Notes: generated from the sequence alone by a model not told the origin. A DNA stretch of 64,000 bases from an uncultured Akkermansia sp. (GCA_964506575.1 CAZDLY010000003.1:41240-105239); one strand, 5' to 3'; counted from the first letter of the stretch, positions 10,066 through 40,486 are shown. Numbers and translations: made by a program.

Positions 10066-10308
10066 ATGAAAGAGATTACCACGCACTATGCCAAGACCCA
10101 CTTGTCTGGGATCCTCAGGGAGGTTCGGGACGGCGAAACCGTCATCATTCTCCAAGGTCGCACGCCCGTGGGAAAACTGATCGCCGCCTCCACCACCCGG
10201 CCACCGCGCGGCCCGAAGGTTGGCCGTCCGACCTCCGCGCCCGTCCAACTCGCGCCAGACGCGTTTGCGCCGCTTTCCGTGGCGGAACTGAAAGCCTGGG
10301 GACTATGA
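10066..10308 (+). CDS. Type II antitoxin, Phd/YefM family
   Basis: 80 aa (MKEITTHYAKTHLSGILREVRDGETVIILQGRTPVGKLI...) with typical Phd/YefM length and N-terminal pattern. Its stop overlaps the toxin start (ATGA). Confidence 0.8.
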   Translation: MKEITTHYAKTHLSGILREVRDGETVIILQGRTPVGKLIAASTTRPPRGPKVGRPTSAPVQLAPDAFAPLSVAELKAWGL

Positions 10309-10691
10309 GAGTACTCCTCGACACCTGCACCTTCATCTGGTTGTGCGCGGAGCCCTCCCGCCTGTCGGCCAGCGTCACGCAGATCCTCGGCCGCCGGGAC
10401 ACGCAGCCGGTTCTCAGTCATGTGTCGATCTTGGAGATCACGCTCAAATGGACCGCAGGCAAGATCATCCTGCCCACGCCGCCCCGCCAGTGGATCGGCG
10501 AACAGGCCGCCATCTGGCAGATGGCGCTGCTGCCGATCACGCCCGACGATATCTACCGCGCCAGTGAACTTCCAACGTTGCACGCCGACCCTTTTGATCG
10601 CCTCCTCGTGGCGACCGCCATCGGCCGCCGCCTCAGCCTGCTGACGCCTGACGAGTGGATGAAACGCTACCCGGTGAGTTGCCTCTGGTAA
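10305..10691 (+). CDS. vapC: Type II toxin VapC (PIN domain ribonuclease)
   Basis: 128 aa with PIN-domain hallmarks (LLDTCTFIWL near the N-terminus; HADPFDRLLVATA near the C-terminus). There is a 4-nt overlap with the upstream antitoxin. Confidence 0.85.
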   Translation: MRVLLDTCTFIWLCAEPSRLSASVTQILGRRDTQPVLSHVSILEITLKWTAGKIILPTPPRQWIGEQAAIWQMALLPITPDDIYRASELPTLHADPFDRLLVATAIGRRLSLLTPDEWMKRYPVSCLW

Positions 10692-10709: not shown

Positions 10710-12413
10710 CTACAGGTCGCCGACGTTGACGACGATGTCGTCATTCGGGCCTTTGGCGCTGGTCGCGCCGCCCGTGGTGATGCCGAACTCATCCAGGATC
10801 GCGGCGGCCTGGGTGGTCGGCAGGTTGCGGTAATAGACCATCAGTTGCAGCGCGGCGAGGCAGGTGTCCATCACCGGGCGGTCTCCATGCAGATCATCGT
10901 TCACCCAGTGTCCGATATCCTGGGCCTGGCCGAGGTGGTTGGTGTAGACACCCTTCTCGATCATCAGCGCCTTCAGATAGTTGGGTTTCATCTTGGCGTT
11001 CCAGGTCTCCCACAGCTTGCCGCCTTCGTGAAATTTGGCCTGCGTGGCGTAATAATAATAATACTGGGTGCAGCTGCTGATGACGACGCCCGCCTTGGCG
11101 GTCCCCTCGGGTACGCGAACATCCTGGTTGTTGGCGCCCGGCTTGACGATGACCCCCCCCTTGACCAGATCTTCATCCTTGGCGGTGATCACCGGAATCC
11201 ACGGCTCCATCACGGCCAGCGTGGCGCGAACCTCGGTTCCCTTGCCCGCCCCGAGAAGCTGGAGGCAGAGCGTACCGACCGCCGATAGCCCGCTGGCGCC
11301 TGGCTTGTCATAGTTGAACCCGCCGCCGCTCATGTAGTTGCACTGGAACCCCTTGATCGCCTTCTTGAGCGCCGTTTCGAGGGCCGGTTTGTTGGTGTAG
11401 GCATTGGACAAGGAGGCGGCCTTGAGCGCCTGCGCGCACCATCCCATGTAGGAGACGTCATTGCGTCCGGTGGGCTTGGCTTTATAGTCCCAGCCGCCCG
11501 ACGGGTTCTGGCCTTTAATCAGCGCGTCGATCGCCTTCCCGGCCGCCTCCTTGACATCCGGGTTCATGGTCATGCCATAGGCCTCGCACAGCGCGTAGGC
11601 GGCCATCGGCAGCGAATATTCGTTGCCATCGCTATTGACGAAGTGACCGTCGGGCCTCTGCGTGCTGATGAGATAGTCGATGGCTTTCTTGACCGTCTCG
11701 CCGAATTCGGGGCTGCTGGCGCCGGGTTTCTCGCCATGCGCCAGGAACGAAAGGAGGGCCAGCGCCGTCATGGCGGGCTTGACCTTGTTCCATGAACCGT
11801 CGGCATTCTGGTTCTTCTTGAGCCAGCGGAGGGCGGCCATCACCGCCGCCTCGGTCTTGGGGTCGCCGCCGAACTTGGTCATCAACTTGCCTCGCATGCC
11901 TGGATCCCGCGTCGTGCCGAAGATGCCCTGCATGATCACGGGGCTTTTGATCTGCAGAACCGCATCCACTGAGGCCGGCTGCTGGGTGATGGGCGCCGCG
12001 TGGGTGGTGGTGGTCGGCGTGTCGACCGGCACCGCCACATCGGTTTCGATCCGGATGTCGGTTTCGATGGGTTCCTGTTCGATCGGAGGTTCCTTTTCCT
12101 TCTCCAACTCCTGGAGCTCCTTGGTCTCCAGAATCTCGACCTTGACCTCGTAGGTGCTGCTGCCCGTGCCGGTGGCCAGAACGGCCATGAGGACAATCGA
12201 GACGAGCGGGATCAGCACCGCGCAGGCCGGCGCGGCGAGGCGCTGCGCCTCGATGCGGGCCGACTTGAACTCGCGGCTGTCGCGGGGGCAGGCAAACCCG
12301 CTGATCATCTTCCTGATCCGGGTGAGGTAGCCGTCCTCATGGAACAGGTTGTTGATCTCCTGAAGCGCCTGATCCTCCTTGGCGAGAATCGCATCTGCGA
12401 TGGGATCGTTCAT
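10710..12413 (-). CDS. Paralog A: membrane-anchored protein (about 60-aa cytoplasmic N-term, one TM helix, acidic/Thr-rich linker) with a C-terminal prenyltransferase/squalene-cyclase-repeat-like alpha/alpha-toroid domain
   Basis: 567 aa from the ATG at 12413 (strong GGAGGTGG RBS). The ORF track start at 12581 adds 56 aa that read through a relic exbD fragment. QW-type repeats are present (KNQNADGSW, TQRPDGHF, KGQNPSGGWDY, NYMSGGGFNY). The C-terminal 1.35 kb is nucleotide-identical to paralog C. Confidence 0.8.
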   Translation of the reverse strand: MNDPIADAILAKEDQALQEINNLFHEDGYLTRIRKMISGFACPRDSREFKSARIEAQRLAAPACAVLIPLVSIVLMAVLATGTGSSTYEVKVEILETKELQELEKEKEPPIEQEPIETDIRIETDVAVPVDTPTTTTHAAPITQQPASVDAVLQIKSPVIMQGIFGTTRDPGMRGKLMTKFGGDPKTEAAVMAALRWLKKNQNADGSWNKVKPAMTALALLSFLAHGEKPGASSPEFGETVKKAIDYLISTQRPDGHFVNSDGNEYSLPMAAYALCEAYGMTMNPDVKEAAGKAIDALIKGQNPSGGWDYKAKPTGRNDVSYMGWCAQALKAASLSNAYTNKPALETALKKAIKGFQCNYMSGGGFNYDKPGASGLSAVGTLCLQLLGAGKGTEVRATLAVMEPWIPVITAKDEDLVKGGVIVKPGANNQDVRVPEGTAKAGVVISSCTQYYYYYATQAKFHEGGKLWETWNAKMKPNYLKALMIEKGVYTNHLGQAQDIGHWVNDDLHGDRPVMDTCLAALQLMVYYRNLPTTQAAAILDEFGITTGGATSAKGPNDDIVVNVGDL

Positions 12414-12451
12414 AGCCACCTCCTCTGGACCCGGTCGGGGGGCGTCCACGT

Positions 12452-12527
12452 TCACGTGCCGAAGATCGCCAGATTCATCGTGTCCAGTGTATGACAAATA
12501 TCCAACGTTTGCACTAAATATTTGTGT
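12452..12527 (-). pseudogene. Relic 3' end of an exbD gene carried along with the duplication that created paralog A
   Basis: The minus strand encodes ..KYLVQTLDICHTLDTMNLAIFGT-stop, versus the genuine ExbD C-terminus KYLVQTLDICHKLQLTNLAIFSM-stop at 16137-16210. It sits at the same spacing (about 40 nt) from the downstream gene start, and no upstream ExbD body is present. Confidence 0.55.
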
Positions 12528-12737
12528 TCTCTCACCCGCGGGGGCGCATCCCCGTTTCACTGACTTGCGCATGAAAAGCAAGGTAGGGCGGGGCCGCCGG
12601 ACCCGCCGCTGGCTTGCGGCGCTGCGACGAGCACGCTCGCCGCAGAAGACGGCGGGTCCGGCGGCCCCGCCCTATCTTCGCCGCTGTGATCCATTGGTCG
12701 CAAGGTCAGTGAAACGGGGATGCGCCCCACCCGCGGC
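12528..12737. repeat. Nested palindrome at the duplication junction (30-bp arms CCGCGGGGGCGCATCCCCGTTTCACTGAC/reverse complement, with an inner GGCCGCCGGACCCGCCG/CGGCGGGTCCGGCGGCC pair)
   Basis: Outer arms at about 12531-12560 and 12700-12733, inner arms at about 12592-12608 and 12650-12666. It lies between the paralog B stop and the exbD relic and is a likely strong hairpin/terminator. Confidence 0.5.
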
Positions 12738-14369
12738 CTAGAGGTTTTCAATGTTGACCGGGATGTCGTCGTTCCGGGTCGCCGCGGCGGGACCGGCCTC
12801 GGCGGCGTCCGGCTTCACCGCGAGTGCGCGGGTGGTCGGCAGATTGCGGTAAGGGACCATGAGCTGGATCGCGGCGAGGCAGGTGTCCATCACCGGGCGG
12901 TCGGTGTTGGCGTCGGTGTTCACCCACCAGCCGATCTCCTGGGGCCGGCCCTGCGGGTCGGTGTAGGCGCCCTTCTCGATCTTCTGGGCCCGGACATAGA
13001 GCCGCCACAGCTTGTCCCACCACGAGGTCCATCGCTTGCCGCGGATGCCGGTGTGGCACTTCGCCTGGGTGGCGTAGTAGTAATAGTACTGGATGTTGCC
13101 GCCAAGCCCCTGGACGTCGCCCGTCAGGAAGGCGGGCGTCCACGCGTCCATCAGGGCGAGCGTCGCGCGCGTCTCGGATTCGCCGCCCGCGCCCAGAAGC
13201 TGCAGGCAGAGCACCCCTGCGGCTGAGAGGCCGCCGGCGCCGGGCTTGTCATAGCCGAACCCCCCGCCGGACTGGTAGTTCTGGCGGAACCCACGCACCG
13301 CCTTCTTCATGGCGGCGGCGAGGGCCGGCTTGTCGCGGTAGGCGTTGGCCAGATGCGCGGCCTTGAGCGCCTGGGCGCACCAGCTCATGACCGAGGTGTC
13401 GTTGCGTTCCGACCCCTTCATGTTGTAATCCCAGCCGCCCGAGGAGTTCTGCCCCGTGACCAGCACGTGGATCGCCCGGTCGGCGGCATCCTTGATGTCG
13501 GGGTTCTGAATCATGCAGTATGCCTCGCTCAGCGCATAGGCAGCGATCGGCAGCGAGTACTCATGGGCGTCGCTGTATTTGAAGCGGCCGTCGGCCTCCT
13601 GCGCGCTCATCAGGAATTGAATCCCTCGCTGAACCGTCTCGCCGAATTCGGGGCTGGTTGCGGGCGTCTCGCTGTGCGACAGGAAGGTGAGCACGGCCAG
13701 ACCCGTCATGGCCACCTTGTTCTGCGGCCAGGAGCCGTCGGCCTGCTGGTTCTTCTTGAGCCAGCGTAGGGCGCGCATCACCGCCCGTTCGGATTCCGTG
13801 ACGTCGATCGGCCCGTTGGTTGTGGATGGCGGAGGATCGTGGATCCAAGGTTTGTTGGTCGGAATATACACCCATATGTTGGTCTTGGGTCCCGGATTTT
13901 TGGGAGGCGGCGGCGGGGGATCGCCATGCGACGGCCCTTCCGGCGGCGGGATCGGTATCGGCGGCTCATCAGAAGGCCCGATGATCGGGCCGACATCCTT
14001 CGGCGTCGGCTGGAGGGGCTGGGGCGGCGTCGGCACAGGATCCAGAATGGGCTGTTCGGGAGGCGTGGGCTCCAGCGTGACCGTCAGCCCCGTGGGTTGA
14101 GGCGCGATCACATCGGCGGCCAGCAGGACGATCAGGACGATGGCGATCAGCGGAATGAGGACCGCGCAGAGGGGCGCGGCGAGGCGTTGCGCCTCGAGGC
14201 GCGCCTCCTTGAACTCCCGCGAGTCCCGCGGGCAGCCAAACCCCCGGATCATCTTCCTGATCCGGGTGTAATAGCCATCCTCGCGGAAGCGCTCGTCGAT
14301 CTCGGCGAGCGCCTGATCCTCCCTGGCGCGGATCGCGTCGGGGTCGTTGTCGCCCGCAGGGTCAGGCAT
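12738..14369 (-). CDS. Paralog B: membrane-anchored protein with a Pro-rich periplasmic linker and a prenyltransferase/squalene-cyclase-repeat-like toroid domain
   Basis: 543 aa, ATG at 14369 with a GGAGGA RBS. Same N-terminal module (REDGYYTRIRKMIRGFGCPRDSREFKEARLEAQRLAAP + TM), then a PTPPEQPILDPVPTPPQPLQPTPK...PPPPPPKNPGPK linker, then a divergent copy of the QW-repeat domain. Only 23 nt separate it from paralog C. Confidence 0.8.
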   Translation of the reverse strand: MPDPAGDNDPDAIRAREDQALAEIDERFREDGYYTRIRKMIRGFGCPRDSREFKEARLEAQRLAAPLCAVLIPLIAIVLIVLLAADVIAPQPTGLTVTLEPTPPEQPILDPVPTPPQPLQPTPKDVGPIIGPSDEPPIPIPPPEGPSHGDPPPPPPKNPGPKTNIWVYIPTNKPWIHDPPPSTTNGPIDVTESERAVMRALRWLKKNQQADGSWPQNKVAMTGLAVLTFLSHSETPATSPEFGETVQRGIQFLMSAQEADGRFKYSDAHEYSLPIAAYALSEAYCMIQNPDIKDAADRAIHVLVTGQNSSGGWDYNMKGSERNDTSVMSWCAQALKAAHLANAYRDKPALAAAMKKAVRGFRQNYQSGGGFGYDKPGAGGLSAAGVLCLQLLGAGGESETRATLALMDAWTPAFLTGDVQGLGGNIQYYYYYATQAKCHTGIRGKRWTSWWDKLWRLYVRAQKIEKGAYTDPQGRPQEIGWWVNTDANTDRPVMDTCLAAIQLMVPYRNLPTTRALAVKPDAAEAGPAAATRNDDIPVNIENL

Positions 14370-14392
14370 CGCGTCCTCCGTTCAGCCGGGGA

Positions 14393-16096
14393 CTACAGGT
14401 CGCCGACGTTGACGACGATGTCGTCATTCGGGCCTTTGGCGCTGGTCGCGCCGCCCGTGGTGATGCCGAACTCATCCAGGATCGCGGCGGCCTGGGTGGT
14501 CGGCAGGTTGCGGTAATAGACCATCAGTTGCAGCGCGGCGAGGCAGGTGTCCATCACCGGGCGGTCTCCATGCAGATCATCGTTCACCCAGTGTCCGATA
14601 TCCTGGGCCTGGCCGAGGTGGTTGGTGTAGACACCCTTCTCGATCATCAGCGCCTTCAGATAGTTGGGTTTCATCTTGGCGTTCCAGGTCTCCCACAGCT
14701 TGCCGCCTTCGTGAAATTTGGCCTGCGTGGCGTAATAATAATAATACTGGGTGCAGCTGCTGATGACGACGCCCGCCTTGGCGGTCCCCTCGGGTACGCG
14801 AACATCCTGGTTGTTGGCGCCCGGCTTGACGATGACCCCCCCCTTGACCAGATCTTCATCCTTGGCGGTGATCACCGGAATCCACGGCTCCATCACGGCC
14901 AGCGTGGCGCGAACCTCGGTTCCCTTGCCCGCCCCGAGAAGCTGGAGGCAGAGCGTACCGACCGCCGATAGCCCGCTGGCGCCTGGCTTGTCATAGTTGA
15001 ACCCGCCGCCGCTCATGTAGTTGCACTGGAACCCCTTGATCGCCTTCTTGAGCGCCGTTTCGAGGGCCGGTTTGTTGGTGTAGGCATTGGACAAGGAGGC
15101 GGCCTTGAGCGCCTGCGCGCACCATCCCATGTAGGAGACGTCATTGCGTCCGGTGGGCTTGGCTTTATAGTCCCAGCCGCCCGACGGGTTCTGGCCTTTA
15201 ATCAGCGCGTCGATCGCCTTCCCGGCCGCCTCCTTGACATCCGGGTTCATGGTCATGCCATAGGCCTCGCACAGCGCGTAGGCGGCCATCGGCAGCGAAT
15301 ATTCGTTGCCATCGCTATTGACGAAGTGACCGTCGGGCCTCTGCGTGCTGATGAGATAGTCGATGGCTTTCTTGACCGTCTCGCCGAATTCGGGGCTGCT
15401 GGCGCCGGGTTTCTCGCCATGCGCCAGGAACGAAAGGAGGGCCAGCGCCGTCATGGCGGGCTTGACCTTGTTCCATGAACCGTCGGCATTCTGGTTCTTC
15501 TTGAGCCAGCGGAGGGCGGCCATCACCGCCGCCTCGGTCTTGGGGTCGCCGCCGAACTTATCCCTCAACTTGCCTCGCATGCCCGGATCCCGCGTCGAGC
15601 CGAAGATGTTGCGCATGATCACGGGGCTTTTGACCTGCAGCACCGTATCCACGGAGGCCGGCTGCTGGGTGATGGGCGCTGCGGTGGTGGTGGTGATCGG
15701 CGTGTCAATTGGCACGGTCACATCGGTTTCGATCTGAATGTCGGTCTCGATGGGGTCCGTTTCGATCAGCTTTTCCTCTTCCTGTTCCAGCTCCTTGACC
15801 TCCTTGGTCTCCAGAATCTTGACCTCGACCTCGTAGGTGTTGCTGATCTTGCCGGTGGCCAGAACGGCCATGAGCACAATCGAAACCAGCGGGATCATCA
15901 CCGCACAGGCCGGTGCCGCGAGGCGTTGAACCTCGATGCGGGCCGACTTGAACTCACGGCTGTCGCGCGGGCAGCCAAACCCGCTGATCATTTTCCTGAT
16001 CCGGGTGAAGTAGCTGTCCTCGTTGAACAGATCGTTGATCTCTTTAAGCGCTTGATCCTCTTTGGCGAGGATTTCGTCTTTGATCGGATCGTTCAT
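14393..16096 (-). CDS. Paralog C: membrane-anchored toroid-domain protein, first gene after exbD in the ExbB-ExbD-ExbD operon
   Basis: 567 aa, ATG at 16096 with a GAAGGAGG RBS, 40 nt downstream of the exbD stop. The N-terminal 210 aa are about 85% identical to paralog A and the rest is 100% identical. Confidence 0.85.
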   Translation of the reverse strand: MNDPIKDEILAKEDQALKEINDLFNEDSYFTRIRKMISGFGCPRDSREFKSARIEVQRLAAPACAVMIPLVSIVLMAVLATGKISNTYEVEVKILETKEVKELEQEEEKLIETDPIETDIQIETDVTVPIDTPITTTTAAPITQQPASVDTVLQVKSPVIMRNIFGSTRDPGMRGKLRDKFGGDPKTEAAVMAALRWLKKNQNADGSWNKVKPAMTALALLSFLAHGEKPGASSPEFGETVKKAIDYLISTQRPDGHFVNSDGNEYSLPMAAYALCEAYGMTMNPDVKEAAGKAIDALIKGQNPSGGWDYKAKPTGRNDVSYMGWCAQALKAASLSNAYTNKPALETALKKAIKGFQCNYMSGGGFNYDKPGASGLSAVGTLCLQLLGAGKGTEVRATLAVMEPWIPVITAKDEDLVKGGVIVKPGANNQDVRVPEGTAKAGVVISSCTQYYYYYATQAKFHEGGKLWETWNAKMKPNYLKALMIEKGVYTNHLGQAQDIGHWVNDDLHGDRPVMDTCLAALQLMVYYRNLPTTQAAAILDEFGITTGGATSAKGPNDDIVVNVGDL

Positions 16097-16136
16097 GGTG
16101 ACCTCCTTCGAACCCGAACAGAGGACCTGTTTGGGC

Positions 16137-16544
16137 TCACATACTGAAGATTGCCAGATTCGTTAGTTGTAGTTTATGACAAATATCCAAAGTTTGCACT
16201 AAATATTTGTGGGGCGAGTCTCCGGTGCAGCGGAGCACCACGCTGACCTTCTTGTCATATTCAGCGATGCTGGTCAGTCGTCGCTCCAAAAGCGCCTTGG
16301 AGACCGGGGCGCCGCGGAAGATAAAGCCCGTTTTGTTGATCTCGATGTTCAACACATTGGGTTGCACCGTGGGCGAGGCGTTGGGATCCGCCGCTGGCGC
16401 GGAAGCGGAGAGCATGGAGTAGATGTCCTCCTGCTTGATGGTGACGATGAAGAAGATCAACAACTGGAACACGACGTCGATCATCGGCGTCATTTCAAGC
16501 TGGGGCTGGTCGTTGGTGATGCGTCGCTGTCTTTTGGCTTTCAT
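16137..16544 (-). CDS. exbD: Biopolymer transport protein ExbD/TolR
   Basis: 135 aa with an MTPMIDVVFQLLIFF N-terminal TM motif typical of the ExbD/TolR family, and an AAGGAGG RBS. Confidence 0.9.
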   Translation of the reverse strand: MKAKRQRRITNDQPQLEMTPMIDVVFQLLIFFIVTIKQEDIYSMLSASAPAADPNASPTVQPNVLNIEINKTGFIFRGAPVSKALLERRLTSIAEYDKKVSVVLRCTGDSPHKYLVQTLDICHKLQLTNLAIFSM

Positions 16545-16547
16545 GCA

Positions 16548-17006
16548 TCAGCCTCCTTTCTTCTTCCCCGTGTGATCAAAGATCGCCATAAACGACAGCT
16601 TCCAGATGCCGGCCTCGGTGCAGATCGACATGACGCGCCTGACTTCCCGGTGCGGCACCCGGTGATCGGCCCGGATGAGGACAGGGAAGTTGGTGTTGCG
16701 GTTTTTGTTGACGCGCCTCGCCAGAATGTCCCGCAATATCGACTCGCTCACCACTGCGTTGTTGATGGAGATGCGGTAGCCGCCAGCGAAGGGTAATCTG
16801 CGCCCCAGCTCGATGATCAGCGTTTGCGGGGGCATCTCCTTGACGATCGCGCCGTGCCGGCCATCCTCCAAGACGATGTCCTCGTACACGTTGTCGGTCA
16901 TCTTCATCGTGACGACGAAAAAGATGATCAACTGGAACACGACGTCGATCATCGGCGTCATGTTCAGATCGCAGCCGGCGGATCGGACTTTTCTAACTTT
17001 TCCCAT
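16548..17006 (-). CDS. exbD: Biopolymer transport protein ExbD/TolR
   Basis: 152 aa with the MTPMIDVVFQLIIFF motif and a GAGGTG RBS, 7 nt after the exbB stop. Confidence 0.9.
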   Translation of the reverse strand: MGKVRKVRSAGCDLNMTPMIDVVFQLIIFFVVTMKMTDNVYEDIVLEDGRHGAIVKEMPPQTLIIELGRRLPFAGGYRISINNAVVSESILRDILARRVNKNRNTNFPVLIRADHRVPHREVRRVMSICTEAGIWKLSFMAIFDHTGKKKGG

Positions 17007-17015
17007 CTCCGCACC

Positions 17016-17870
17016 TCAATCGTTCACGACCTCGACGTTGCGCAGATCCTTGATCAGCTCCATGGTCATGGCCTCCATGCGGAGGACGAGCTTGTTGGCA
17101 TTGTTGCGGATGCCATAGTAGAAGGTGATGGCCGGGATGGCGACGACCAAGCCGCCGGCGGTCGTCCACAGCGCCTGGGCAATGGCGAGGGCCAGCGCGC
17201 CGACGTCGGGGGCCGCCGTGGCGATGTTTCCGAAGGCCATGATCATGCCCTGCACCGTGCCGAGCAGCCCGAGCATCGGCGCGAGATTGGCGCAGACCGA
17301 GATCCAGGTGAGGCGCTGCATCAGCCGTTCCGTCTCGAGATCGGCCGCCGTGCCGACGCTCTCCTGGATGATGTCGTAGCCCTCCTCCACGTGCGAGAAA
17401 CCGGCCGACAGGATGTTGGCCATCGCGCCGGGCTCGCTCTCGCAGGCTTTCAGGGCCTTGAGGACATCCCCCTCGGCCATGGCGCTCTTGACCTGGTCGA
17501 TCAACGTGCCGGGCAGCATCTTATGGGGGCGCACGAGAATCGAGCAGTCCACGATGAAGTAGATGGCCGCCGCGCCGCTTCCGAACAAAGCAACCCACAG
17601 CAGGAAGCCCAGGATTCCCGATCCCATCATGATGTCGTAGAAATTGGTGGCGCTCCGCTTTCTTGCTGCGGTGACCGGTGCGCCGCTCGAGGCATCGACG
17701 ATCGGCGCGCTTTCCAGCGCCGGGCCGGCCGCCGGGGCCGGCGCCGGGGCAACCGCCGGGGCCGCCGCTGGGGCAGCCGCCGGGGCCGCCGCCGCGCCAT
17801 CCTGGGCCAGAAGCGCCGGAGCGCCCAGCAGCGTCGCAAGCATCACCGCATTCATCACTAGTTTCTTCAT
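17016..17870 (-). CDS. exbB: MotA/TolQ/ExbB proton-channel family protein with an N-terminal signal peptide and an Ala/Pro-rich periplasmic extension
   Basis: 284 aa. The C-terminal half matches the ExbB/TolQ core (LGLLGTVQGMIMAFGNIA....ALWTTAGGLVVAIPAITFYY). The N-terminus is MKKLVMNAVMLATLLGAPALLAQ followed by AAAPAAAPAVAPAPAPAAG. AGAGGA RBS. Confidence 0.9.
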   Translation of the reverse strand: MKKLVMNAVMLATLLGAPALLAQDGAAAAPAAAPAAAPAVAPAPAPAAGPALESAPIVDASSGAPVTAARKRSATNFYDIMMGSGILGFLLWVALFGSGAAAIYFIVDCSILVRPHKMLPGTLIDQVKSAMAEGDVLKALKACESEPGAMANILSAGFSHVEEGYDIIQESVGTAADLETERLMQRLTWISVCANLAPMLGLLGTVQGMIMAFGNIATAAPDVGALALAIAQALWTTAGGLVVAIPAITFYYGIRNNANKLVLRMEAMTMELIKDLRNVEVVND

Positions 17871-18016
17871 GGTATCCTCTCGCCTTTCGTCGTTCGGCCG
17901 TGTGCCGACTTCGCGTTGTTACCCCTGCGTCGTGCGCCGGGCGCCCCGCCCGGCTTCTCCAAACGTGTCTCTCCGCCACGGCCGATCGCCAGACCGGCCG
18001 CCGGTCGCTTTTCCGT

Positions 18017-18823
18017 TCAGGGCTTGTTGGCCCATTCGCTGCCCGGGAATTCCTTGCGGATCGTCTCGCGGCGCTCCTGCGCGCGGGCTGTCATGCCCAG
18101 CTTCTCCAGGCTTTTGGCGGCCTTGTAGTTCGCTTCGGGCTGGACCTCCTTGACGCTGCGGTAGAGCGTGACCACCCGCAGGTAGCCGTCCTTCAGCGCC
18201 CGGGTGTGGTACTCCTGCGTGTCGCCGCCCTTCAGAATCAGGTCGCCGCGGAGGATGAGCGCGGTCGCCGAGGCCAGGCGATTGCCGCTTTTCACGGCCT
18301 GCCCCAGCAGATCGTCGAGTTTCGAGGTGCGGTTCTCGCGGAGCAGAATGCGCCAGTACACCGTGGCCAGATCGCCGATATAGGCGGCATCGGGACGGGC
18401 GGCGGTGATGCGCTCGATCGCCCGGATCGCCTCGCCGCCGTTGTTCGCCTGCAGATAGGCCTCCGCCAGCCAGCGGGCCGCCTCCTCGTCGTGCTGCAGC
18501 ATGAAATAGTCGGTGACGATCTTGTTCAGCGGCCCGATGGCCTCCGCGCCCTTGTTCTCGCGGACGGCCTTGATCGCCGGATCCAGCTCCCGGGGCCTGA
18601 CCACCGACAATTTCACCACATCGGCCAGCGCGATGGTGAGGTCAAACCCCTTGTCGGTGAGCACGTAGGACTTGCTGCTGCTCATCCAGCGCAACATCCC
18701 GGACCGCGGGCCGCTTTTCAGCGTGATGGTCCCCTGAACCTGCGCCCGGGACTCCGGGGCCGTCGACAACACGGCGAGCGCGGCGATGATCAGCGCGCAG
18801 CCACGCAATTGCATCTGTTTCAT
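18017..18823 (-). CDS. Secreted TPR-like protein (signal peptide)
   Basis: 268 aa from the ATG at 18823 (AAGGAG RBS 9 nt upstream), N-terminus MKQMQLRGCALIIAALAVLSTAPESRAQ. It lies 26 nt after the upstream TPR gene and 146 nt before exbB. Confidence 0.6.
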   Translation of the reverse strand: MKQMQLRGCALIIAALAVLSTAPESRAQVQGTITLKSGPRSGMLRWMSSSKSYVLTDKGFDLTIALADVVKLSVVRPRELDPAIKAVRENKGAEAIGPLNKIVTDYFMLQHDEEAARWLAEAYLQANNGGEAIRAIERITAARPDAAYIGDLATVYWRILLRENRTSKLDDLLGQAVKSGNRLASATALILRGDLILKGGDTQEYHTRALKDGYLRVVTLYRSVKEVQPEANYKAAKSLEKLGMTARAQERRETIRKEFPGSEWANKP

Positions 18824-18849
18824 GTTGGGCACTCCTTAAATCCTATCCC

Positions 18850-21800
18850 TTATTTATTGGACGCCAGCTCGATGTTCGCCTGATTCAGCCACGTTCGAAC
18901 CTGAGGCGCGTTGGGGCTGCTGGCAAAAGCGGCCAGATACTTCGCGCACGCATCGGCGGCTCCCTGGAACTTCTTGTGCTCCAGCTCAAGCGGGATGCTC
19001 AGCAGATAGGCCTGTTCGAGCACGGGGTCGGAAACGGCGCTCCCGGGAGGAGTCGCATAGATGAGCTGCTTGAAGGCCACGATCGCCTGGCCGCGGGTGA
19101 TGCCGGCCTGCTCATTGAGGCCCAAGGCTTTTTCGGCATTCAGCTTGCGGATCATCGTCCGGCCGACCTGAATATCGAGCGCCATCATGTCCTTGTTTTC
19201 TTTGCGGTAGGCGCGGACGAACTTGAACGCCTCCACGGCGCGGGTGAACAGTTTCTGCCGCCGGCCGTTGTCCTTCTCGGTCTCACCCTCGGCGCTGGCC
19301 GCGTCGGCGAGCATCAGGTAGGCATCGACCACGAGCGCCGAATTGGTGTAGGTCGCGACAAACGTGTCGAGTTCCGCGCGCGCCTCGGCGTATTTCTTCA
19401 TGCCCACGAGCGCCTGGGTCCGGCCCAGGCGCGCCTGCGCCTGCATCGCGGGATCCCGGGTCGCGGCGAGCACCCGGGCGAACCCCTGCAGCGCGCTGTC
19501 GCTTTCGCCCGCATCCACCAGCGCGCGCGCCGCCGCGAGGAGCTGGTAATCGGGGTAGACGTCGGCGCCCGGGCCCGCGAACATCTCCTTGTATTTGGCG
19601 ACCGCCTCGCTGCGCAGCCCCATCTCCATCAGGCTGGCGGCGAGCATCGGCACCGAGCTGCGGGCCTCCTCGGAAGCGGGGTAGTCCTGGCGCAACCGGG
19701 CAAAAGCCCCCTGCGCCTTTTCGCTCTCCTGGAGGACGGTGTAAATCGTGCCGACCCGGATCAGGGCATGGGGCGCATACGGCGACTGGGGAAACTCCTT
19801 CACAAAGGCCAGATAGGTCTCGATCACCTGGGGCCGGAGCTTGGCCACCGTCTCGGCGGGCGCAACGACCTGGGACAGGCAGGCGGCCCTCTGCAGGATG
19901 GCCTGCTGGCGGATCAGCACCGCCTGATTCGTGTCGATGGCGACGGTGGCTGGTATGGCGGCGAGGTCTTTCAACACCTGGCTGAACGCGAGGGCGGCCT
20001 GGATCAACTGCTCCGACCCCGCGATGCGCTCGACGTCGTTCGTGGCGGCATGCACGCGCGCCAGCGCAATCGTGCGGCTGGCCTGCGCGATGCGGGAGCG
20101 GGCCGACGTAATAGCCAGGCCGGGCTTCCCGGCCTGGAGCAGATGGGCCATGTAGGTGGCGAGGGTGGCGAGCTCGTTGGTGTAGTTTTGCCGCTGGCTG
20201 TGGAGGGCGGCGATCCGGCTCAGCGTCTCGCCATAGTAGGCCGACGCGGGATAGGCCTCGACCAGGCGGTTGTAATAGGCGAGCGCCCCGGCGGCGTCTC
20301 CGCCTTCGGCGGCCTGCGCGCCGAAGATCATCAGCTTCAGCGGCGCATCGGGATGACCGGGGAAATGGAGGAAGAAGAGGTCATAGGCCTGCTTGCGCTT
20401 GTCGGCCATCTGTTTTTCGCCCATCAGATCGGCCAGCCGCTCCACCTCGCTGCCCGCCTCCAGGGCCTGGGGCGACAGGGAGAACCGCTCGGCGAGATGC
20501 GCGGTGATCGTGACGGCGAGCAGGTCCTCGTAGCCGTCCTCGCCCCGCGACTCGAGGCAGGCCCTGGCCAGCTCGCCCAGGGCGGGCACGGACTCGGCCG
20601 TCTCCGGGAAGTGATTCAGAACCACGAGATACACCGGAATGCTCGCCGCAAACTGATTGTTGGCGAAGAGCTGGCGGGCCTCCTGAAACTGCTTGCGCCG
20701 CATCCGGTCATAATCCTCGGGCGTGAACTCGGGCTTGAGCTCCACCTTGAAGCGATCCTGGATGAAGGCGCGTATCCGCTGCTCGCGTTCGCCCGCTTCC
20801 ATCGCCCATTGGCAGTCGGGGAATTTGCCGATGACGTTGACCAGGTGCTGGTAGGCGCCGTTGGGCTTGCGCTTGCCGTCGGTGCCGCGCTCGCCGAGCA
20901 GCAGGGTCTTGATCAGTTCGTTGTCGCCGGCGGGGTCCTTGGCGATCTTCATCGCCTCGTCCTCGAGCATGACGGCGATGAGGAAGCGGCACTGGGCCAT
21001 GGGGCTCAGCCGGACGAGGCCGGTGGCCCCCTCGTCCCGCTCCTGGGCGACCAGCGCATCGTGGATCTGCTGCAGCACGTCCCGGTGCTCATCGATGAGC
21101 GACTGCGCCTTCGCGGTCTCGCCCCTCAAGACCAGACTGTGCGCCCGGGTGACGATCGCCTTGCCGAACCACATGTCCTGATCCCACAGCAGCTGGCTCG
21201 CCAGCTTGTCGGCCTCGGCGAGGAGCGCGACCTTCGCGGCCTTGACGGTCTCGGCTTCGGCCACCTTGACGCACAATTCGGCCGTGTCGGACTGCACCTG
21301 GCGCAACGCCTCGCCCGGCAGCTTCACCTGCAACAGCCGCCGGTAGGCGTCGAGCGCCCGTTTCTCCTGCCGCACGGCCAGCAGCATTTGCGGATATTTG
21401 TAGGCGCTGTCGAGATAGAACGACTCCACCTCGGGCGTGGGCTGCGGAAACCGCTTGAAGAACCCATCGTACAGTCCGAACGCCTCTTCGCTGCGGCCGA
21501 AGGCGTAGAAGCCATCGGCCAGCGCCAGCTTCATCACCCACGCCTCGGCGCCGTCGGGAGTGGGGTGGCGGGCGATCAGATCCCGGACTTTTTCGAACTC
21601 GCCCTGCGAGAGCATGCCGCGCAATTCCAGGATTTTCAGCGTGATCGCGGCGTCGGGATACCGCTTCTTGAGATCCTCGATCACCTTCGCCGCAAAATCG
21701 GGCATCCGCAGATCATCCTGCAACTGCCGGATATACTGCGTCTCCTGGGCGATGAACGCCTCTTTCTCTTTTGCGGGGTCGCCGGTCTGCGCCGACGCCG

Positions 21801-21873
21801 AAAAAGCCAGTAACGCCGCCGTGCCGGCCAGCGCCCCCCAGCCACCCACCGATGTGCGCAGGAATGCATTCAT
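18850..21873 (-). CDS. Secreted tetratricopeptide-repeat protein (about 1007 aa)
   Basis: Start taken at the ATG at 21873 (MNAFLRTSVGGWGALAGTAALLAFSASAQ signal peptide, AAAGGGGGG RBS). Helical-repeat composition throughout. The antisense ORF 18976..21813 is an artifact. Confidence 0.75.
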   Translation of the reverse strand: MNAFLRTSVGGWGALAGTAALLAFSASAQTGDPAKEKEAFIAQETQYIRQLQDDLRMPDFAAKVIEDLKKRYPDAAITLKILELRGMLSQGEFEKVRDLIARHPTPDGAEAWVMKLALADGFYAFGRSEEAFGLYDGFFKRFPQPTPEVESFYLDSAYKYPQMLLAVRQEKRALDAYRRLLQVKLPGEALRQVQSDTAELCVKVAEAETVKAAKVALLAEADKLASQLLWDQDMWFGKAIVTRAHSLVLRGETAKAQSLIDEHRDVLQQIHDALVAQERDEGATGLVRLSPMAQCRFLIAVMLEDEAMKIAKDPAGDNELIKTLLLGERGTDGKRKPNGAYQHLVNVIGKFPDCQWAMEAGEREQRIRAFIQDRFKVELKPEFTPEDYDRMRRKQFQEARQLFANNQFAASIPVYLVVLNHFPETAESVPALGELARACLESRGEDGYEDLLAVTITAHLAERFSLSPQALEAGSEVERLADLMGEKQMADKRKQAYDLFFLHFPGHPDAPLKLMIFGAQAAEGGDAAGALAYYNRLVEAYPASAYYGETLSRIAALHSQRQNYTNELATLATYMAHLLQAGKPGLAITSARSRIAQASRTIALARVHAATNDVERIAGSEQLIQAALAFSQVLKDLAAIPATVAIDTNQAVLIRQQAILQRAACLSQVVAPAETVAKLRPQVIETYLAFVKEFPQSPYAPHALIRVGTIYTVLQESEKAQGAFARLRQDYPASEEARSSVPMLAASLMEMGLRSEAVAKYKEMFAGPGADVYPDYQLLAAARALVDAGESDSALQGFARVLAATRDPAMQAQARLGRTQALVGMKKYAEARAELDTFVATYTNSALVVDAYLMLADAASAEGETEKDNGRRQKLFTRAVEAFKFVRAYRKENKDMMALDIQVGRTMIRKLNAEKALGLNEQAGITRGQAIVAFKQLIYATPPGSAVSDPVLEQAYLLSIPLELEHKKFQGAADACAKYLAAFASSPNAPQVRTWLNQANIELASNK

Positions 21874-22038: not shown

Positions 22039-23199
22039 ATGGGTAAAGTCCTGAGAGTGTTGATTGTCCTGATTCTGGTTATTGGCGCCGGAGCTCTCTT
22101 CTTGGAGTTTCAAATCAGCGGCATGCGCGAGGCGCTCGTGGGCCGGGCGCACAAGTTCGAGGACGGCATCAAGCGTGTCGCCGGCACCATCGAGGCGCAG
22201 CCGCCGGTCGAGATGCCCGCGCGCACCCTTCCCGAACGCGACATCTCCCCGGTGACCGCCGTCGAGAACCCCAACCCGGACAGGAAGACGTTCTGGAACG
22301 GCTATCCCTTCCAACTGGAACAGGACAACCTGACACCGCTCGATTACAACACCGACGCGATGGCCAAACAGTTGCGCCAGTACTATTTCGAGGAGTTCGA
22401 TGCGGCGAAGAACAAGCCGGTGCGCGCGCGCGACCCGCGCGACCCGCGCAAATACGCAACCAGCGGCAAGGGTACCCTGCAGGAGGCACTGGATAATCTC
22501 TTCACCCGCGCCAAGGCGCAAAATGAGACGCTCAACACGACCCGCGCGCAGTTGAAGAAGACGGCGGAAGAGCTGGTCGACCTGATCAACGAGTTCAACC
22601 GCCTCAAGCAGAGCAGCCGCGCCGACAAGAAGTCGCTCGAAGAACGGCTGGCGGAAATCACCCGGCTCGCGGGCGAGGTGGCCGACCGCGAGGCCAAGAT
22701 CACCAAGTTGGATGCGAAGATTCTGGATCTGGAGACGGAAGAGGCCCGATTCAAGGCCGAGTTTGCAAAAATGCAAGACACGATCACCTCCCAGGAGTCG
22801 TCCCTCACGGCCCAGGCGAAGCAGATCGAAAAGCTGGAGCGGGAGTGCGGCCAGGGATCGGGACCGAGACCCGGAAAACCCGGCGTCCCCGAAAACCTCG
22901 AAAATATGCTGACCCCCGGCGACAAGGGCAAGGTCGTCGCCCACGACGACACGCTCAAGTTCGCAGTGGTCGAGTTGTCGCCCGCGTTTATGAAGGAGCT
23001 GCTCGGCACGAATCTGGACCAGGCGCTGCCCCCGATCGAGATGATGGTCCGGCGGCCTGCCTTGAAGTCCGCCACGGGCGATTTCGTCACCCGCATCCGC
23101 CTCCGTCAGGTCGTCCGCGGCCAGGGGCTTGTCGTCGCCGATGTCCTCATCGACTGGCAGCAGCACCCGCTGGAGAAGGGCGATGTGGTTTACTTCTAA
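22039..23199 (+). CDS. Membrane-anchored coiled-coil protein, hypothetical
   Basis: 386 aa with a GAGGAAG RBS. N-terminal TM (VLRVLIVLILVIGAGALFL), then a K/E/Q/L-rich coiled-coil segment (TRAQLKKTAEELVDLINEFNRLKQ...LDAKILDLETEEARFKAEFAKMQD). The antisense ORF 22018..23346 is R/G-rich junk. Confidence 0.65.
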   Translation: MGKVLRVLIVLILVIGAGALFLEFQISGMREALVGRAHKFEDGIKRVAGTIEAQPPVEMPARTLPERDISPVTAVENPNPDRKTFWNGYPFQLEQDNLTPLDYNTDAMAKQLRQYYFEEFDAAKNKPVRARDPRDPRKYATSGKGTLQEALDNLFTRAKAQNETLNTTRAQLKKTAEELVDLINEFNRLKQSSRADKKSLEERLAEITRLAGEVADREAKITKLDAKILDLETEEARFKAEFAKMQDTITSQESSLTAQAKQIEKLERECGQGSGPRPGKPGVPENLENMLTPGDKGKVVAHDDTLKFAVVELSPAFMKELLGTNLDQALPPIEMMVRRPALKSATGDFVTRIRLRQVVRGQGLVVADVLIDWQQHPLEKGDVVYF

Positions 23200-30447: not shown

Positions 30448-30789
30448 TCAATCCGGGTGCCGCGCACAGGCGACGGCGGGTTCGCCCACGGTGCCCGCGA
30501 TGGTGTACGCAGTGTTGCCCGCCTTGCAGAGGGGGATCTGGCCTGTCTTCGCGTATTCACCCAGGGCTGCCGGGTCAATCGCGTCGCCGGGCCCCTTGCT
30601 CGCAACCAGCGCCCACTGGCTGATCATGTCTTGGATCAGACGACGATGATAGAGGCACAGAGTGCGCTGGGTGTTTTCGCGCGCGCGGAGCAGGTTGGGG
30701 GCCACGATCATCGACAACAGGAACAACAGCGCGACCACGATCATGATCTCGATGAGCGTGAAACCGCCTCTGGCCATCAACCGTTTCAT
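30448..30789 (-). CDS. Prepilin-type N-terminal cleavage/methylation domain protein (pseudopilin-like)
   Basis: 113 aa from the ATG at 30789 (AGAGGGG RBS). N-terminus MKRLMARGGFTLIEIMIVVALLFLLSMIVAPNL with a GFTLIE prepilin motif. Confidence 0.75.
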   Translation of the reverse strand: MKRLMARGGFTLIEIMIVVALLFLLSMIVAPNLLRARENTQRTLCLYHRRLIQDMISQWALVASKGPGDAIDPAALGEYAKTGQIPLCKAGNTAYTIAGTVGEPAVACARHPD

Positions 30790-30920
30790 GGCGCCCCTCT
30801 GATCATCACGTGTACCCTCGTGACCAGGCGCGGCCGCTCCTCCGGCGGTCCGCCCACCCCATGACAACGGCGTGAGTATAGCACCTCGCTGGATAATCGT
30901 CAAGGCAAGGAAAACATAAA

Positions 30921-30943
30921 AGCAGGGCCGCGCCAGAGGCGCG
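30921..30943 (-). terminator. Intrinsic terminator after pilin copy 1 (GGGCCGCGCC-tctg-GGCGCGGCCC followed by TGCTTTTATGTTTTCC on the minus strand)
   Basis: Perfect GC-rich hairpin plus a U-rich tail, 40 nt downstream of the pilin stop at 30983. Confidence 0.6.
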
Positions 30944-30982
30944 GCCCTGTCTTCGCATGCACACCATCAAAGCCGATCTTCT

Positions 30983-31384: not shown

Positions 31385-31576
31385 GATGTGAATCCTTCTT
31401 TTTTTGCTCCCGTTCAACCCAGCACGTAGTGCCGTGTGCGCAACCACGCGCTCTCCTTTTACGCCCGACTGTCAACTAACCGCCCCGGAATGAGACGATC
31501 CAATCGAGCCTTCGGGTATGATTGTAAGCCGAACTCACGCCAAACACAAGAAAATAGTTATCCGGAAAAAATAATA

Positions 31577-31599
31577 ACAGGGCCGCGCCAGAGGCGCGG
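31577..31599 (-). terminator. Intrinsic terminator after pilin copy 2 (same hairpin, followed by TGTTATTATTTTTTCC)
   Basis: Duplicate of the hairpin at 30921-30943 with a T-rich tail. Confidence 0.6.
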
Positions 31600-31637
31600 C
31601 CCTGTCTTCGCATGCACACCATCAAAGCCGATCTTCT

Positions 31638-39490: not shown

Positions 39491-39540
39491 GTGGTATCAG
39501 CGTCCGTCGTTCGGAAACCATGCGGGTGGGGCGGGGTGCT

Positions 39541-40484: not shown

Positions 40485-40486
40485 GG

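Follow-up and report, generated by a model that had tools for sequence, protein, structure and literature searches.

To our knowledge, the 5:2 proton motors (ExbBD, TolQR, MotAB, GldLM, and AglRQS) are the only means by which energy is delivered to the outer membrane of diderm bacteria. The task that each of these motors performs depends on the identity of its third partner. The closest precedent for the locus described here is the group of force transducers with a vWA head, which sit behind TPR-tolQ-tolR-tolR in PVC bacteria and were first noticed in a Kiritimatiellota species without discernible TonB or TolA (Williams-Jones 2025, Mol Biol Evol, PMC12204202). TolA and TonB were not discernible in Tichowtungia (PMC12204202), and the supplement to that work records tolB-pal in Kiritimatiella glycovorans with the remark "unable to annotate TolA" and enters a Lentisphaerae MAG as "tolQ-tolR-???- No TolA found" (PMC12204202 supplement).

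We analyzed a window of 64 kb (the whole stretch of DNA, 64,000 nucleotides) from a freshwater Kiritimatiellia bacterium. In this bacterium and most of its relatives, a conserved, proton-driven ExbB-ExbD-ExbD motor operon has, in the slot usual for TonB/TolA, membrane-anchored proteins with a terpene-cyclase-like toroid head, a family that is specific to Kiritimatiellota and Lentisphaerota and whose paralogs are bitopic inner-membrane proteins. The minus-strand gene string of the original prediction, TPR-TPR-ExbB-ExbD-ExbD-paralog C-B-A, was present as described in the ORF list (Table 1), and Pfam matches to TPRs were found in both of the secreted proteins said to precede the motor. The length of 1007 aa given earlier for the larger of these corresponds to an internal ATG at 21873, which is the likely start within a full ORF of 1016 aa.

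Table 1. Features of the ExbB-ExbD-ExbD-toroid block and its surroundings, in window coordinates.
Feature	Position	Strand	Basis or remark
Toroid protein paralog A, 567 aa from MNDPIAD (ORF extends to 12581)	10710..12413	-	ORF list, Pfam
Relic of ExbD2 3' end	12452..12515	-	80% identical to 16137-16200
Nested inverted repeat at duplication junction	12541..12728	.	Unique in window
Toroid protein paralog B, 543 aa, Pro-rich TonB-like linker	12738..14369	-	ORF list, Pfam
Toroid protein paralog C, 567 aa, motor-adjacent copy	14393..16096	-	ORF list, Pfam, structure prediction
Extreme C-terminal acidic strand-like tail of paralog C	14396..14431	-	DDIxVxxG[DN]L-COOH
(alpha/alpha)6 toroid head of paralog C, residues 185-530, QW-type repeats	14507..15544	-	Structure prediction
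Post-TM strand-like segment of paralog C, candidate "motor box"	15800..15838	-	Family alignment; TYEVEVKILETKE
TM helix of paralog C, residues ~59-82	15851..15922	-	Family motif RL-x-AP-x6-P
ExbD/TolR paralog 2 (ExbD2), 135 aa	16137..16544	-	PF02472, 70.4 bits; immediately upstream of toroid gene
ExbD/TolR paralog 1, 152 aa	16548..17006	-	PF02472, 72.6 bits
ExbB/TolQ-family proton-channel subunit, 284 aa	17016..17870	-	PF01618 (MotA_ExbB), 95.6 bits
Small secreted TPR protein, 271 aa from GTG / 268 from ATG	18017..18832	-	TPR_19, 28.7 bits
Secreted TPR protein, 1016 aa	18850..21900	-	ORF list; first gene of conserved block
Coiled-coil membrane protein, 386 aa, divergently transcribed	22039..23199	+	Neighbor clustering

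The motor genes are recognizable members of their families but fell short of every equivalog cut-off. ExbB is of the "long" type: its N-terminus resembles a signal peptide, and after it comes an Ala/Pro-rich extension containing a AAAPAAAPAAAPAVAPAPAPAA stretch; its best NCBIfam match was TolQ (71.3 bits vs a cut-off of 221), and its identity across loci ranged from 57 to 96%. The best NCBIfam match of the first ExbD paralog was TolR (43 bits vs a cut-off of 127.3). The ExbB family domain and the ExbD transmembrane aspartate (MTPMIDVVFQL in paralog 1) are both present, which speaks for an intact motor. Upstream, the large TPR protein carries several CpoB/YbgF-like and BamD/YfiO-like TPR units (tol_pal_ybgF, 85.3 bits, cut-off 90.1; OM_YfiO, 66.6 bits). 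It keeps its position in the block in more than 40 loci, and the small TPR protein, whose gene is separated from the ExbB gene by 146 nt, is also syntenic in more than 40 loci. A conserved coiled-coil membrane protein (cluster c8), which matched no significant Pfam family, is encoded upstream of and divergently from the block in at least 14 loci; this regular neighbor may be an associated component. Housekeeping genes (gyrBA, ileS) surround the block, and many Kiritimatiellia have lolCE-lolD immediately downstream of it. The window also contains a second ExbB-ExbD-ExbD cluster, which is accompanied by a TolA-like anchor that contains His.

To evaluate conservation, we collected 80 Kiritimatiellia and Lentisphaerae loci with 21-kb flanks, among which 67 toroid gene copies had a determinable context. 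The toroid gene directly followed ExbD in the order TPR-TPR-ExbB-ExbD-ExbD for 47 of these 67, with a median gap of 47 nt between the second exbD and the toroid gene and with protein identities of 38-96% among loci sharing the order. The order was confirmed independently from called genes and precomputed Pfam matches. Because it recurs so often in other genomes, chance is far from sufficient to account for the arrangement; the adjacency of exbBD and toroid genes, on which the original prediction had staked itself, is conserved, and accidental adjacency was ruled out. Motor-linked copies usually occur once per locus. The remaining 20 copies (~30%) are orphans encoded away from a motor, and ECF sigma and zf-HC2 anti-sigma genes come after many of these (at least 12 loci). 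In some loci, ExbD2 travels with toroid genes in the absence of ExbB: L068 and L076 each have an ExbD2-like gene paired with a toroid gene and no ExbB on the part of the contig examined, and L014 is a further case.

The history of the tandem copies can be partly read from the window. Three tandem paralogs were predicted and three are present, but the triplet is specific to this genome: the nearest genomes (L001 and L002) carry C and B and lack A. Paralogs A and C are 99-100% identical over their 3' ~1.1 kb and 88% identical over the 5' part. The palindrome and relic noted earlier between B and A are real, consisting of nested inverted repeats (outer arms 12541-12564/12705-12728, 24 nt, 100%; inner arms 12580-12608/12650-12678, 29 nt, 97%) and a remnant of the ExbD2 3' end. 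This remnant marks paralog A as a copy of the ExbD2 tail plus paralog C, so that A is, judging from its sequence, a recent local duplicate. Paralog B, in turn, is a second tandem copy that is kept in the nearest genomes and forms a separate clade. The duplication units include ExbD2, as seen both in the relic and in the ExbD2-like and toroid gene pairs of L068 and L076.

Next we considered the fold of the head. SQHop_cyclase_C matched all three paralogs above its gathering cut-off of 26.1 bits (A, 34.2; B, 30.8; C, 33.3 bits), and SQHop_cyclase_N was above cut-off in A and C. Structure prediction and fold search gave, with confidence, an all-helical single barrel of ~350 residues. The QW-repeat toroid domains, whose absence would have counted against the original prediction, were thus upheld by HMM, structure prediction, and fold search. 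The head resembles class II terpene cyclases, SHC, and prenyltransferase beta subunits (PF13243, PF13249, PF00432) in being an (alpha/alpha)6 barrel with QW repeats; however, class II terpene cyclases and SHC have two barrels (beta-gamma) and a catalytic DxDD, whereas the toroid head is one barrel, periplasmic and tethered. A conserved DxDD acid was absent (where DxDD did occur, in 23 of the 71 members, it was confined to two variable columns of the alignment), as was a conserved DDxxD, and no glycoside-hydrolase family matched above cut-off in Pfam or NCBIfam. NCBIfam cyclase models scored the toroid proteins at 20-38 bits against cut-offs of 322-851. A true terpene cyclase was therefore ruled out by the single barrel, the periplasmic tether, the lack of a conserved DxDD, and these low scores, and the annotation "terpene cyclase/mutase family protein" in these genomes is functionally misleading. 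A thioester (alpha-2-macroglobulin-like) domain was also ruled out, since the WCAQ motif is not CxEQ and CxEQ occurred in none of the 71 members; TED structures ranked only in the middle of the fold neighbors. These neighbors include terpene cyclases, GH76, GH88, GH8, cellobiose and AGE epimerases, and MmpH, and many carbohydrate-active enzymes likewise contain toroids of such shape. The invariant residues of the head cluster in aromatic and acidic motifs (WCAQALK, GGFGY, QYYYYYATQ, and DRPVMDTC). The putative exported protein YPO2471 of Yersinia pestis (PDB 7tem), one of the nearest known counterparts, is, in contrast to the membrane-anchored toroid family, a soluble exported protein of unknown function; we know of no N-terminal anchor or motor module for it, and it was not among the sequence-profile matches at E<=1.

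The N-terminal module consists of cytoplasmic helices, the TM helix, and a post-TM strand-like segment; its conserved cytoplasmic domain of ~60 aa bears the motif PRDSREYKxAxIExQRL, and the TM region has invariant R58, L59, A61, P62, and P69 (paralog C numbering). The conserved post-TM segment, which has an alternating residue pattern, follows the TM by 5-10 residues and reads [DE]R[IV]IETQ[IV][LM]E in relatives and QPTGLTVTLEP in paralog B. As a candidate it resembles the "motor box" of TonB/TolA, as defined in PMC12204202, at the motif level only and without statistical support, and AF2 gave no strand there in the monomer model. The linker of ~100 residues is predicted to be disordered and is acidic, or Pro-rich in paralog B; like the tail, it is of low confidence in the predicted model. 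A BLASTP comparison of the paralog B linker with E. coli TonB, using an approximate TonB sequence, returned nothing significant, and homology between the two was dropped. In the tail, D559, I560, and L567 are invariant.

A search with the N-module matched 263 representatives among 1.84 billion (E<=0.001), always at the protein N-terminus, and the module is conserved in motor-linked and orphan toroid copies alike. We inspected 148 newly retrieved proteins among the best 150 of the 263 matches. Those of at least 200 aa either had a toroid or a PA14 head or were fragments from the ends of contigs, and no fusion of the N-module to TonB_C was seen among them. The PA14-headed proteins form a sister subfamily with the same N-module, a sugar-binding PA14 head, and the same kind of C-terminal tail (DDVxVDVDI / ITVDFGNL), and they too are placed after ExbD-ExbD. 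Because the N-module also occurs in this position with a PA14 head, the N-module and tail look like a motor-linked chassis with swappable heads.

Compared with TonB and TolA, the toroid proteins share both setting and architecture. Their genes directly follow exbB-exbD; the proteins are N-in and bitopic, with one TM, a short candidate strand-like segment, a long linker predicted to be disordered, and a globular head; a genome can have several paralogs, not all of them next to the motor genes; and TPR accessory genes lie in the block, which is also the case in Tol-Pal (CpoB) and in Ton clusters with two ExbDs. Unlike TonB and TolA, the family lacks TonB_C and TolA_C and has no SHLS/His in the TM, and it possesses a ~60-aa cytoplasmic domain, a toroid head of ~350 aa, and an invariant C-terminal tail. 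The prediction of a TonB/TolA topology without TonB_C or SxxxH was correct: paralogs A, B, and C had no Pfam match to TonB_C (PF03544) or TolA at E<=0.01, SxxxH (SHLS) is absent from the TM helix, and His occurred in the TM columns of only 4 of 71 aligned family members. TonB_C and TBDT domains (Plug, TonB_dep_Rec) were found in no gene of the window, and neither tolB nor pal was among the conserved block neighbors in the 80 loci. The vWA transducers have in common with the toroid family a TM, a disordered linker, a non-TonB head, and the slot behind TPR-tolQ-tolR-tolR; they keep SHLS/His, however, whereas the toroid family dispenses with it and has its own N-module and C-tail with a toroid or PA14 head. 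For vWA heads, the general idea of non-TonB heads in this slot was already published in 2025 (PMC12204202) and so has a precedent. The claim that the combination had no described function therefore needs narrowing: it appears to hold for the toroid family, which is not mentioned in PMC12204202, and not for non-TonB heads as such, given the vWA transducers described there. Our literature search found no report linking ExbB/TolA or ExbD with squalene cyclase, prenyltransferase, or squalene oxidase repeats, and the toroid-type motor partner appears to be undescribed.

We consider that the toroid proteins most likely, at somewhat better than an even chance, substitute for TonB/TolA as the third subunit, the one that transduces force, in a Ton/Tol-like ExbB5-ExbD1/ExbD2 proton motor. 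The N-module (two cytoplasmic helices, the TM with RLxAPx6P, and the post-TM strand) would dock on the motor, the post-TM strand taking the role of a "motor box" captured by the ExbD periplasmic domains. The ~100-residue acidic or Pro-rich linker would span the periplasm, and the single toroid head, presumably derived from the terpene-cyclase/prenyltransferase fold, would bind a partner or ligand. The acidic strand at the C-terminus, which is invariant, may dock through strand addition or in the manner of a terminal peptide, with the co-encoded TPR proteins or a partner in the outer membrane as possible docking sites. Anything bound by the head would thereby be pulled or moved as protons flow, and the extra paralogs, tandem and orphan, could share one motor as multiple TonBs share ExbBD. 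The analysis itself shows the domain content, the fold, the conserved synteny, and the modular exchange of heads, whereas motor binding, force transduction, a glycan ligand, and the function of the tail belong to the proposed model. Several observations weigh against this model. The SHLS/His of TonB, TolA, and the vWA transducers is absent from the toroid TM, so any docking on the motor would work differently. The conserved cytoplasmic domain is without counterpart in TonB/TolA and suggests signaling, and about 30% of copies are orphans, many of them adjoining ECF sigma/anti-sigma genes. In addition, at least one member of the Kiritimatiellales, Pontiella agarivorans, is reported to have canonical TonB/TBDT genes in its genome.

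An unlikely variant is that the block is a diverged Tol system in which the toroid protein is the missing TolA of Kiritimatiellota and Lentisphaerota, with tolB-pal elsewhere and a role in outer-membrane stabilization and constriction. The transducer mechanism would be the same, with its output fixed as housekeeping. The TolQ and TolR best matches, a large TPR protein just under the tol_pal_ybgF cut-off, the lack of an annotated TolA in Kiritimatiella glycovorans and a Lentisphaerae MAG (PMC12204202 supplement), the genomic surroundings (gyrBA, ileS, and often lolCE-lolD), and the rule of one motor-linked copy per locus are all consistent with it. Yet every Tol-model score was below its equivalog cut-off, there are two heterologous ExbDs and not one TolR, and tolB and pal are absent from the conserved neighborhood in the 80 loci. 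The paralog expansion, sigma-linked orphans, and PA14 variant resemble TonB-style diversification more than a single-copy TolA, and the second ExbB-ExbD-ExbD cluster of the window could itself be the Tol motor.

The sigma-linked orphans raise instead the idea of a transmembrane glycan sensor of the RsgI/anti-sigma type, in which the head binds polysaccharide and the highly conserved N-domain signals to a sigma factor or another regulator; exbBD adjacency would then reflect energized trans-envelope signaling or mere co-regulation and not force on a load. We regard this as improbable. The N-domain had no Pfam match to RsgI_N, zf-HC2, or another anti-sigma family, the sigma-linked loci already have their own zf-HC2 anti-sigma factor, and no sigma factor is encoded close to the motor-linked copies, which are the majority. 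The RsgI-type carbohydrate sensors of Clostridium thermocellum differ further in that the toroid family has a diderm host and most of its copies belong to a motor operon. Nor does a sensor explain why the toroid gene follows ExbD so closely and was duplicated together with ExbD2. Conserved ExbD adjacency and the N-module likewise go unaccounted for if the protein is an anchored periplasmic enzyme, acting on glycan or on an isoprenoid or lipid carrier, that is co-transcribed with the motor and mechanically uncoupled from it. The many enzymes among the fold neighbors, the many invariant residues in aromatic and acidic motifs, and the existence of orphans would fit such an enzyme. It is nonetheless very improbable in our assessment, as the head has neither a conserved DxDD/DDxxD nor a glycoside-hydrolase match above cut-off, the same chassis bears a non-catalytic PA14 lectin head, and a disordered tether of ~100 residues with a conserved terminal strand is unusual for a simple anchored enzyme.

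Returning to the force-transducer model, the ligand of the head is, by analogy, most likely an envelope or nutrient glycan, because a sugar-binding PA14 head occurs on the same chassis and toroids are common in carbohydrate-active enzymes. Kiritimatiellota and Lentisphaerota are glycan specialists largely without SusC/D-type TonB-dependent uptake. A more specific proposal, possible but on balance doubtful, is that a head-swappable, motor-driven transducer (toroid or PA14 head with TPR partners) grabs polysaccharide, or a partner in the outer membrane that bears glycan, and pulls it along or through the envelope, or else that the family is the TolA replacement. If the glycan-pulling reading is true, the block would be a new energized envelope machine, distinct from Ton and Tol. 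Non-TonB transducers, a class that was opened only recently, would gain new members in the phylum-wide toroid partner and its PA14 sister. The toroid protein would be a concrete candidate for the "tolQ-tolR-???" gap in Kiritimatiella and Lentisphaerae, as well as a testable starting point for understanding how these abundant polysaccharide degraders energize their envelope without classical TonB/SusCD systems.

The motor operon of the window is an unbroken minus-strand string of open reading frames (ORFs), in which three membrane-anchored toroid proteins (paralogs A, B, and C) follow an ExbB-ExbD-ExbD motor preceded by two TPR proteins. Together, the ORF list and Pfam bear out the originally predicted order TPR-TPR-ExbB-ExbD-ExbD-C-B-A, and the 1007-aa TPR protein of that prediction starts at an internal ATG of a longer ORF. 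The ExbB gene is separated from the shorter TPR gene by a 146-nt gap, and codon-position GC favours the operon frames over the antisense ORFs. The ExbD pair scored 72.6 and 70.4 bits against Pfam ExbD. The best NCBIfam matches were TolQ/TolR for the motor genes, below cut-off, and CpoB/YbgF for the large TPR protein, also below (85.3 versus 90.1). Domain searches found no TonB_C, Plug, or TBDT barrel domain in any gene of the 64-kb window.

Features of the motor operon, the second motor cluster, and their neighbours (L, loci from other genomes; P, sister-subfamily proteins)
Feature	Position or loci	Strand	Evidence or remark
TPR protein, 1016 aa	18850-21900	minus	ORF list; internal ATG at 21873 gives 1007 aa
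TPR protein, 271 aa	18017-18832	minus	ORF list
ExbB	17016-17870	minus	ORF list; Pfam MotA_ExbB, 95.6 bits
ExbD, first	16548-17006	minus	Pfam ExbD
ExbD, second (ExbD2)	16137-16544	minus	Pfam ExbD
Paralog C	14393-16096	minus	Pfam SQHop_cyclase_C
Paralog B	12738-14369	minus	Pfam SQHop_cyclase_C
Nested inverted repeat	12541-12728		24-nt outer and 29-nt inner arms, perfect or near-perfect
ExbD2 relic	12452-12515		80% identity to 16137-16200
Paralog A	10710-12413	minus	Pfam SQHop_cyclase_C
Phd/PIN toxin-antitoxin pair	10066-10691		
Coiled-coil membrane-anchored protein, ~380 aa	22039-23199	plus	divergent from TPR-motor block
Three small genes, prepilin-type N-terminal methylation motifs	30448-32039	minus	pseudopilin or type IV pilin-like
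Second motor cluster, whole	35991-54433	minus	
TPR protein, 619 aa	52574-54433	minus	
TPR protein, 761 aa	50299-52584	minus	
Giant protein, 2762 aa	42007-50295	minus	BamD/YfiO-like TPRs
136-aa ORF	between 2762-aa gene and second-cluster ExbB	minus	
ExbB, second cluster	40918-41577	minus	
Two ExbDs, second cluster	40487-40897, 40068-40484	minus	
176-aa protein	39541-40071	minus	His-containing TM helix IAFWTIVAIAIHVVVVGM; Ala/Lys-rich TolA-like stretch
DUF4159 membrane protein	37901-39490	minus	polytopic
637-aa protein	35991-37904	minus	no family matched
Sister subfamily	L082-L086; P0135, P0148, P0153, P0171, P0189, P0202, P0212, P0221, P0241, P0255, P0256		
Orphan toroid gene with ECF sigma/zf-HC2 sub-operon	L026, L035, L040, L041, L042, L047, L052, L054, L062, L065, L070, L072, L077		downstream of toroid gene
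lolC/E-like (MacB_PCD+FtsX) and lolD-like ABC genes	L007, L010, L019, L021, L023-L031, L037, L038, L050, L053, L056, L066, L067, L081		downstream of toroid gene

The predicted adjacency of exbBD and toroid genes is kept across related genomes. Scanning species-representative genomes yielded 80 loci, none of them from outside Kiritimatiellia, Lentisphaerae, and mislabelled PVC MAGs, and these loci we compared by tblastn with the window's eight proteins. The second exbD directly precedes the toroid gene in 47 of the 67 loci with enough upstream DNA (median gap 47 nt; the count takes in L074, with a gap of 468 nt), and the whole TPR-TPR-ExbB-ExbD-ExbD block is visible in 40 of these 47. An independent look-up of called genes and precomputed Pfam matches showed the block again, on a 3.8-Mb contig. 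Two loci (L068, L076) have an ExbD2-like gene beside the toroid gene and no ExbB on the part of the contig examined. Toroid genes away from a motor (orphans) occur at 20 loci and interleave with motor-linked copies in a neighbour-joining tree, which implies repeated duplication. The operon also appears in MAGs titled "Akkermansia muciniphila" or "uncultured Akkermansia sp." (L002, L020, L039, L040); such titles on Kiritimatiellia/Lentisphaerae-type loci probably reflect mis-binning or mislabelling in public records.

The predicted toroid nature of the periplasmic globular domain (head) was supported by profile searches and structure prediction. All three paralogs exceeded the gathering score of SQHop_cyclase_C (34.2, 30.8, and 33.3 bits versus 26.1), with weaker Pfam matches to other toroid families (Pec_lyase, Cobalamin_bind, LANC_like) and none to TonB_C or TolA, in agreement with the prediction that this is not a TonB C-terminal domain. 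An AF2 model of paralog C, made from a 20-sequence alignment, begins with two helices and a long one in which the TM segment lies; disorder at residues 82-182 is followed by a confident all-helical domain at residues 185-530 (pLDDT 85-96) and then a disordered tail. When PDB sequences were searched with a profile, squalene-hopene cyclase was matched via the QW repeats only (E 1.6e-9). Against NCBIfam cyclase models the paralogs scored 20-38 bits, far under cut-offs of 322-851, and we therefore rejected them as cyclase equivalogs. A conserved DxDD general acid is the defining feature of class II cyclases. Because neither a conserved DxDD nor a CxEQ thioester was present across 71 full-length family members, the DxDD result means that the head has a terpene-cyclase-type fold without the class II general acid. 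Histidine occupies TM columns in just 4 of the 71, as expected from the predicted lack of SxxxH.

A word-indexed homologue search returned 974 relatives, full-length at 520-590 aa. Most come from MAGs of Kiritimatiellia and Lentisphaerae, and automatic annotation calls them, for example, "terpene cyclase/mutase family protein". Conservation runs end to end in the alignment. The cytoplasmic segment closes with PRDSREYKxAxIExQRLxAP, and R58, L59, A61, P62, and P69 of the TM helix are invariant. A strand-like segment follows (TYEVEVKILETKE in paralog C, [DE]R[IV]IETQ[IV][LM]E in most relatives, and QPTGLTVTLEP before a Pro-rich run in paralog B). Beyond it come a variable acidic or Pro-rich linker and another conserved stretch (VKSPVILKNIYG). 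The toroid is next, and a variable spacer separates it from the terminal DDIxVDxGNL-COOH, which is invariant. The post-TM strand occupies the position of the "motor box" of TonB/TolA (PMC12204202); since BLASTP against E. coli TonB gave nothing significant, the likeness is at the level of the motif only.

An 86-residue profile of the N-module (cytoplasmic helices, TM helix, and post-TM strand) matched just 263 proteins among 1.84 billion representatives (E<=0.001); in almost every one of the best 150 the match lies at the N-terminus or close to it. Among the matches listed, the N-module, SPV segment, and C-terminal tail (…DDVxVDVDI or …ITVDFGNL) recur in about 13 representatives of 420-490 aa that carry another middle domain; the remainder are toroid proteins and contig-end fragments. 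This domain gave only faint PA14/GLEYA Pfam matches and a confident beta-rich AF2 model, and is predicted to be a PA14 sugar-binding domain in the toroid's place. One sister-subfamily gene lies directly after ExbD-ExbD (L085), another after one ExbD at a contig end (L082), and the third placed gene is an orphan. With N-module and tail common to different heads, both found beside ExbD, the family is built on a common chassis of N-module, linker, and tail, whose periplasmic head has been exchanged without loss of the motor-adjacent position.

Three tandem paralogs are present in the window as predicted, but the closest genomes (L001, L002; 72-96% identity) carry C and B only. From its sequence, paralog A is a recent copy of the ExbD2 3' end plus paralog C: A and C are 99-100% identical over the 3' ~1.1 kb and 88% identical in the 5' part. 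The predicted palindrome and relic were both located, the inverted repeat, unique in the window, sitting exactly in the interval that separates paralog B from the ExbD2 relic 5' of paralog A. The repeat may serve as a terminator, or it may have been left by the element or event behind the duplication.

Directly 3' of the block, many Kiritimatiellia carry lolCE-lolD, whereas the window has the toxin-antitoxin pair and then gyrB-gyrA, with no lol genes there. The coiled-coil protein is kept divergent, 5' of the block, in at least 14 loci (cluster c8); it has a conserved C-terminal domain ending …KGDVVYF and no significant Pfam family, and may belong to the motor system. In the second motor cluster (TPR-TPR-giant TPR-ExbB-ExbD-ExbD), TonB_C is again absent and the 176-aa protein has no globular head. 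The prepilin-motif genes sit between the two clusters.

Within computational reach, these results support the original prediction that toroid proteins fill the energy-transducer slot, and on balance we favour the reading that they are non-canonical force transducers of a Ton/Tol-like motor and that their head is probably of a glycan type. That the protein substitutes specifically for TolA is suggested by the Tol-flavoured HMM matches of the block genes and by a gap in the literature: the supplement of PMC12204202 lists tolB-pal and no annotatable TolA for Kiritimatiella glycovorans, and "tolQ-tolR-???- No TolA found" for one Lentisphaerae MAG. Paralog expansion and head swapping speak against such a substitution, which we consider unlikely. 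At least 12 loci have an orphan toroid gene with an ECF sigma factor (Sigma70_r2/r4) and a zf-HC2 anti-sigma encoded after it, often together with an alpha-acetolactate-decarboxylase-like gene. This conserved sub-operon, along with the conserved cytoplasmic domain, would fit an RsgI-like glycan sensor, a role that nonetheless seems quite improbable. We give only a slim chance to an anchored enzyme uncoupled from the motor.

The force-transducer reading has a close parallel. Williams-Jones et al. (2025) sought TolA/TonB in genomes without discernible ones, starting from the Kiritimatiellota species Tichowtungia aerotolerans (PMC12204202). Their non-TonB transducers occupy the same operon slot but keep an SHLS/His helix, which the toroid family lacks, and the words toroid, squalene, terpene, and prenyl are absent from that paper. 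The K. glycovorans genome paper reported TonB-dependent polysaccharide uptake genes to be absent; PF00593/PF03544 are listed near some sulfatases in a Pontiella genome. We found no literature combining ExbB/ExbD with a cyclase or prenyltransferase. The toroid proteins would extend the recently recognised class of non-TonB transducers, to which they would add a previously undescribed toroid head, N-module, and tail, and evidence of head swapping.
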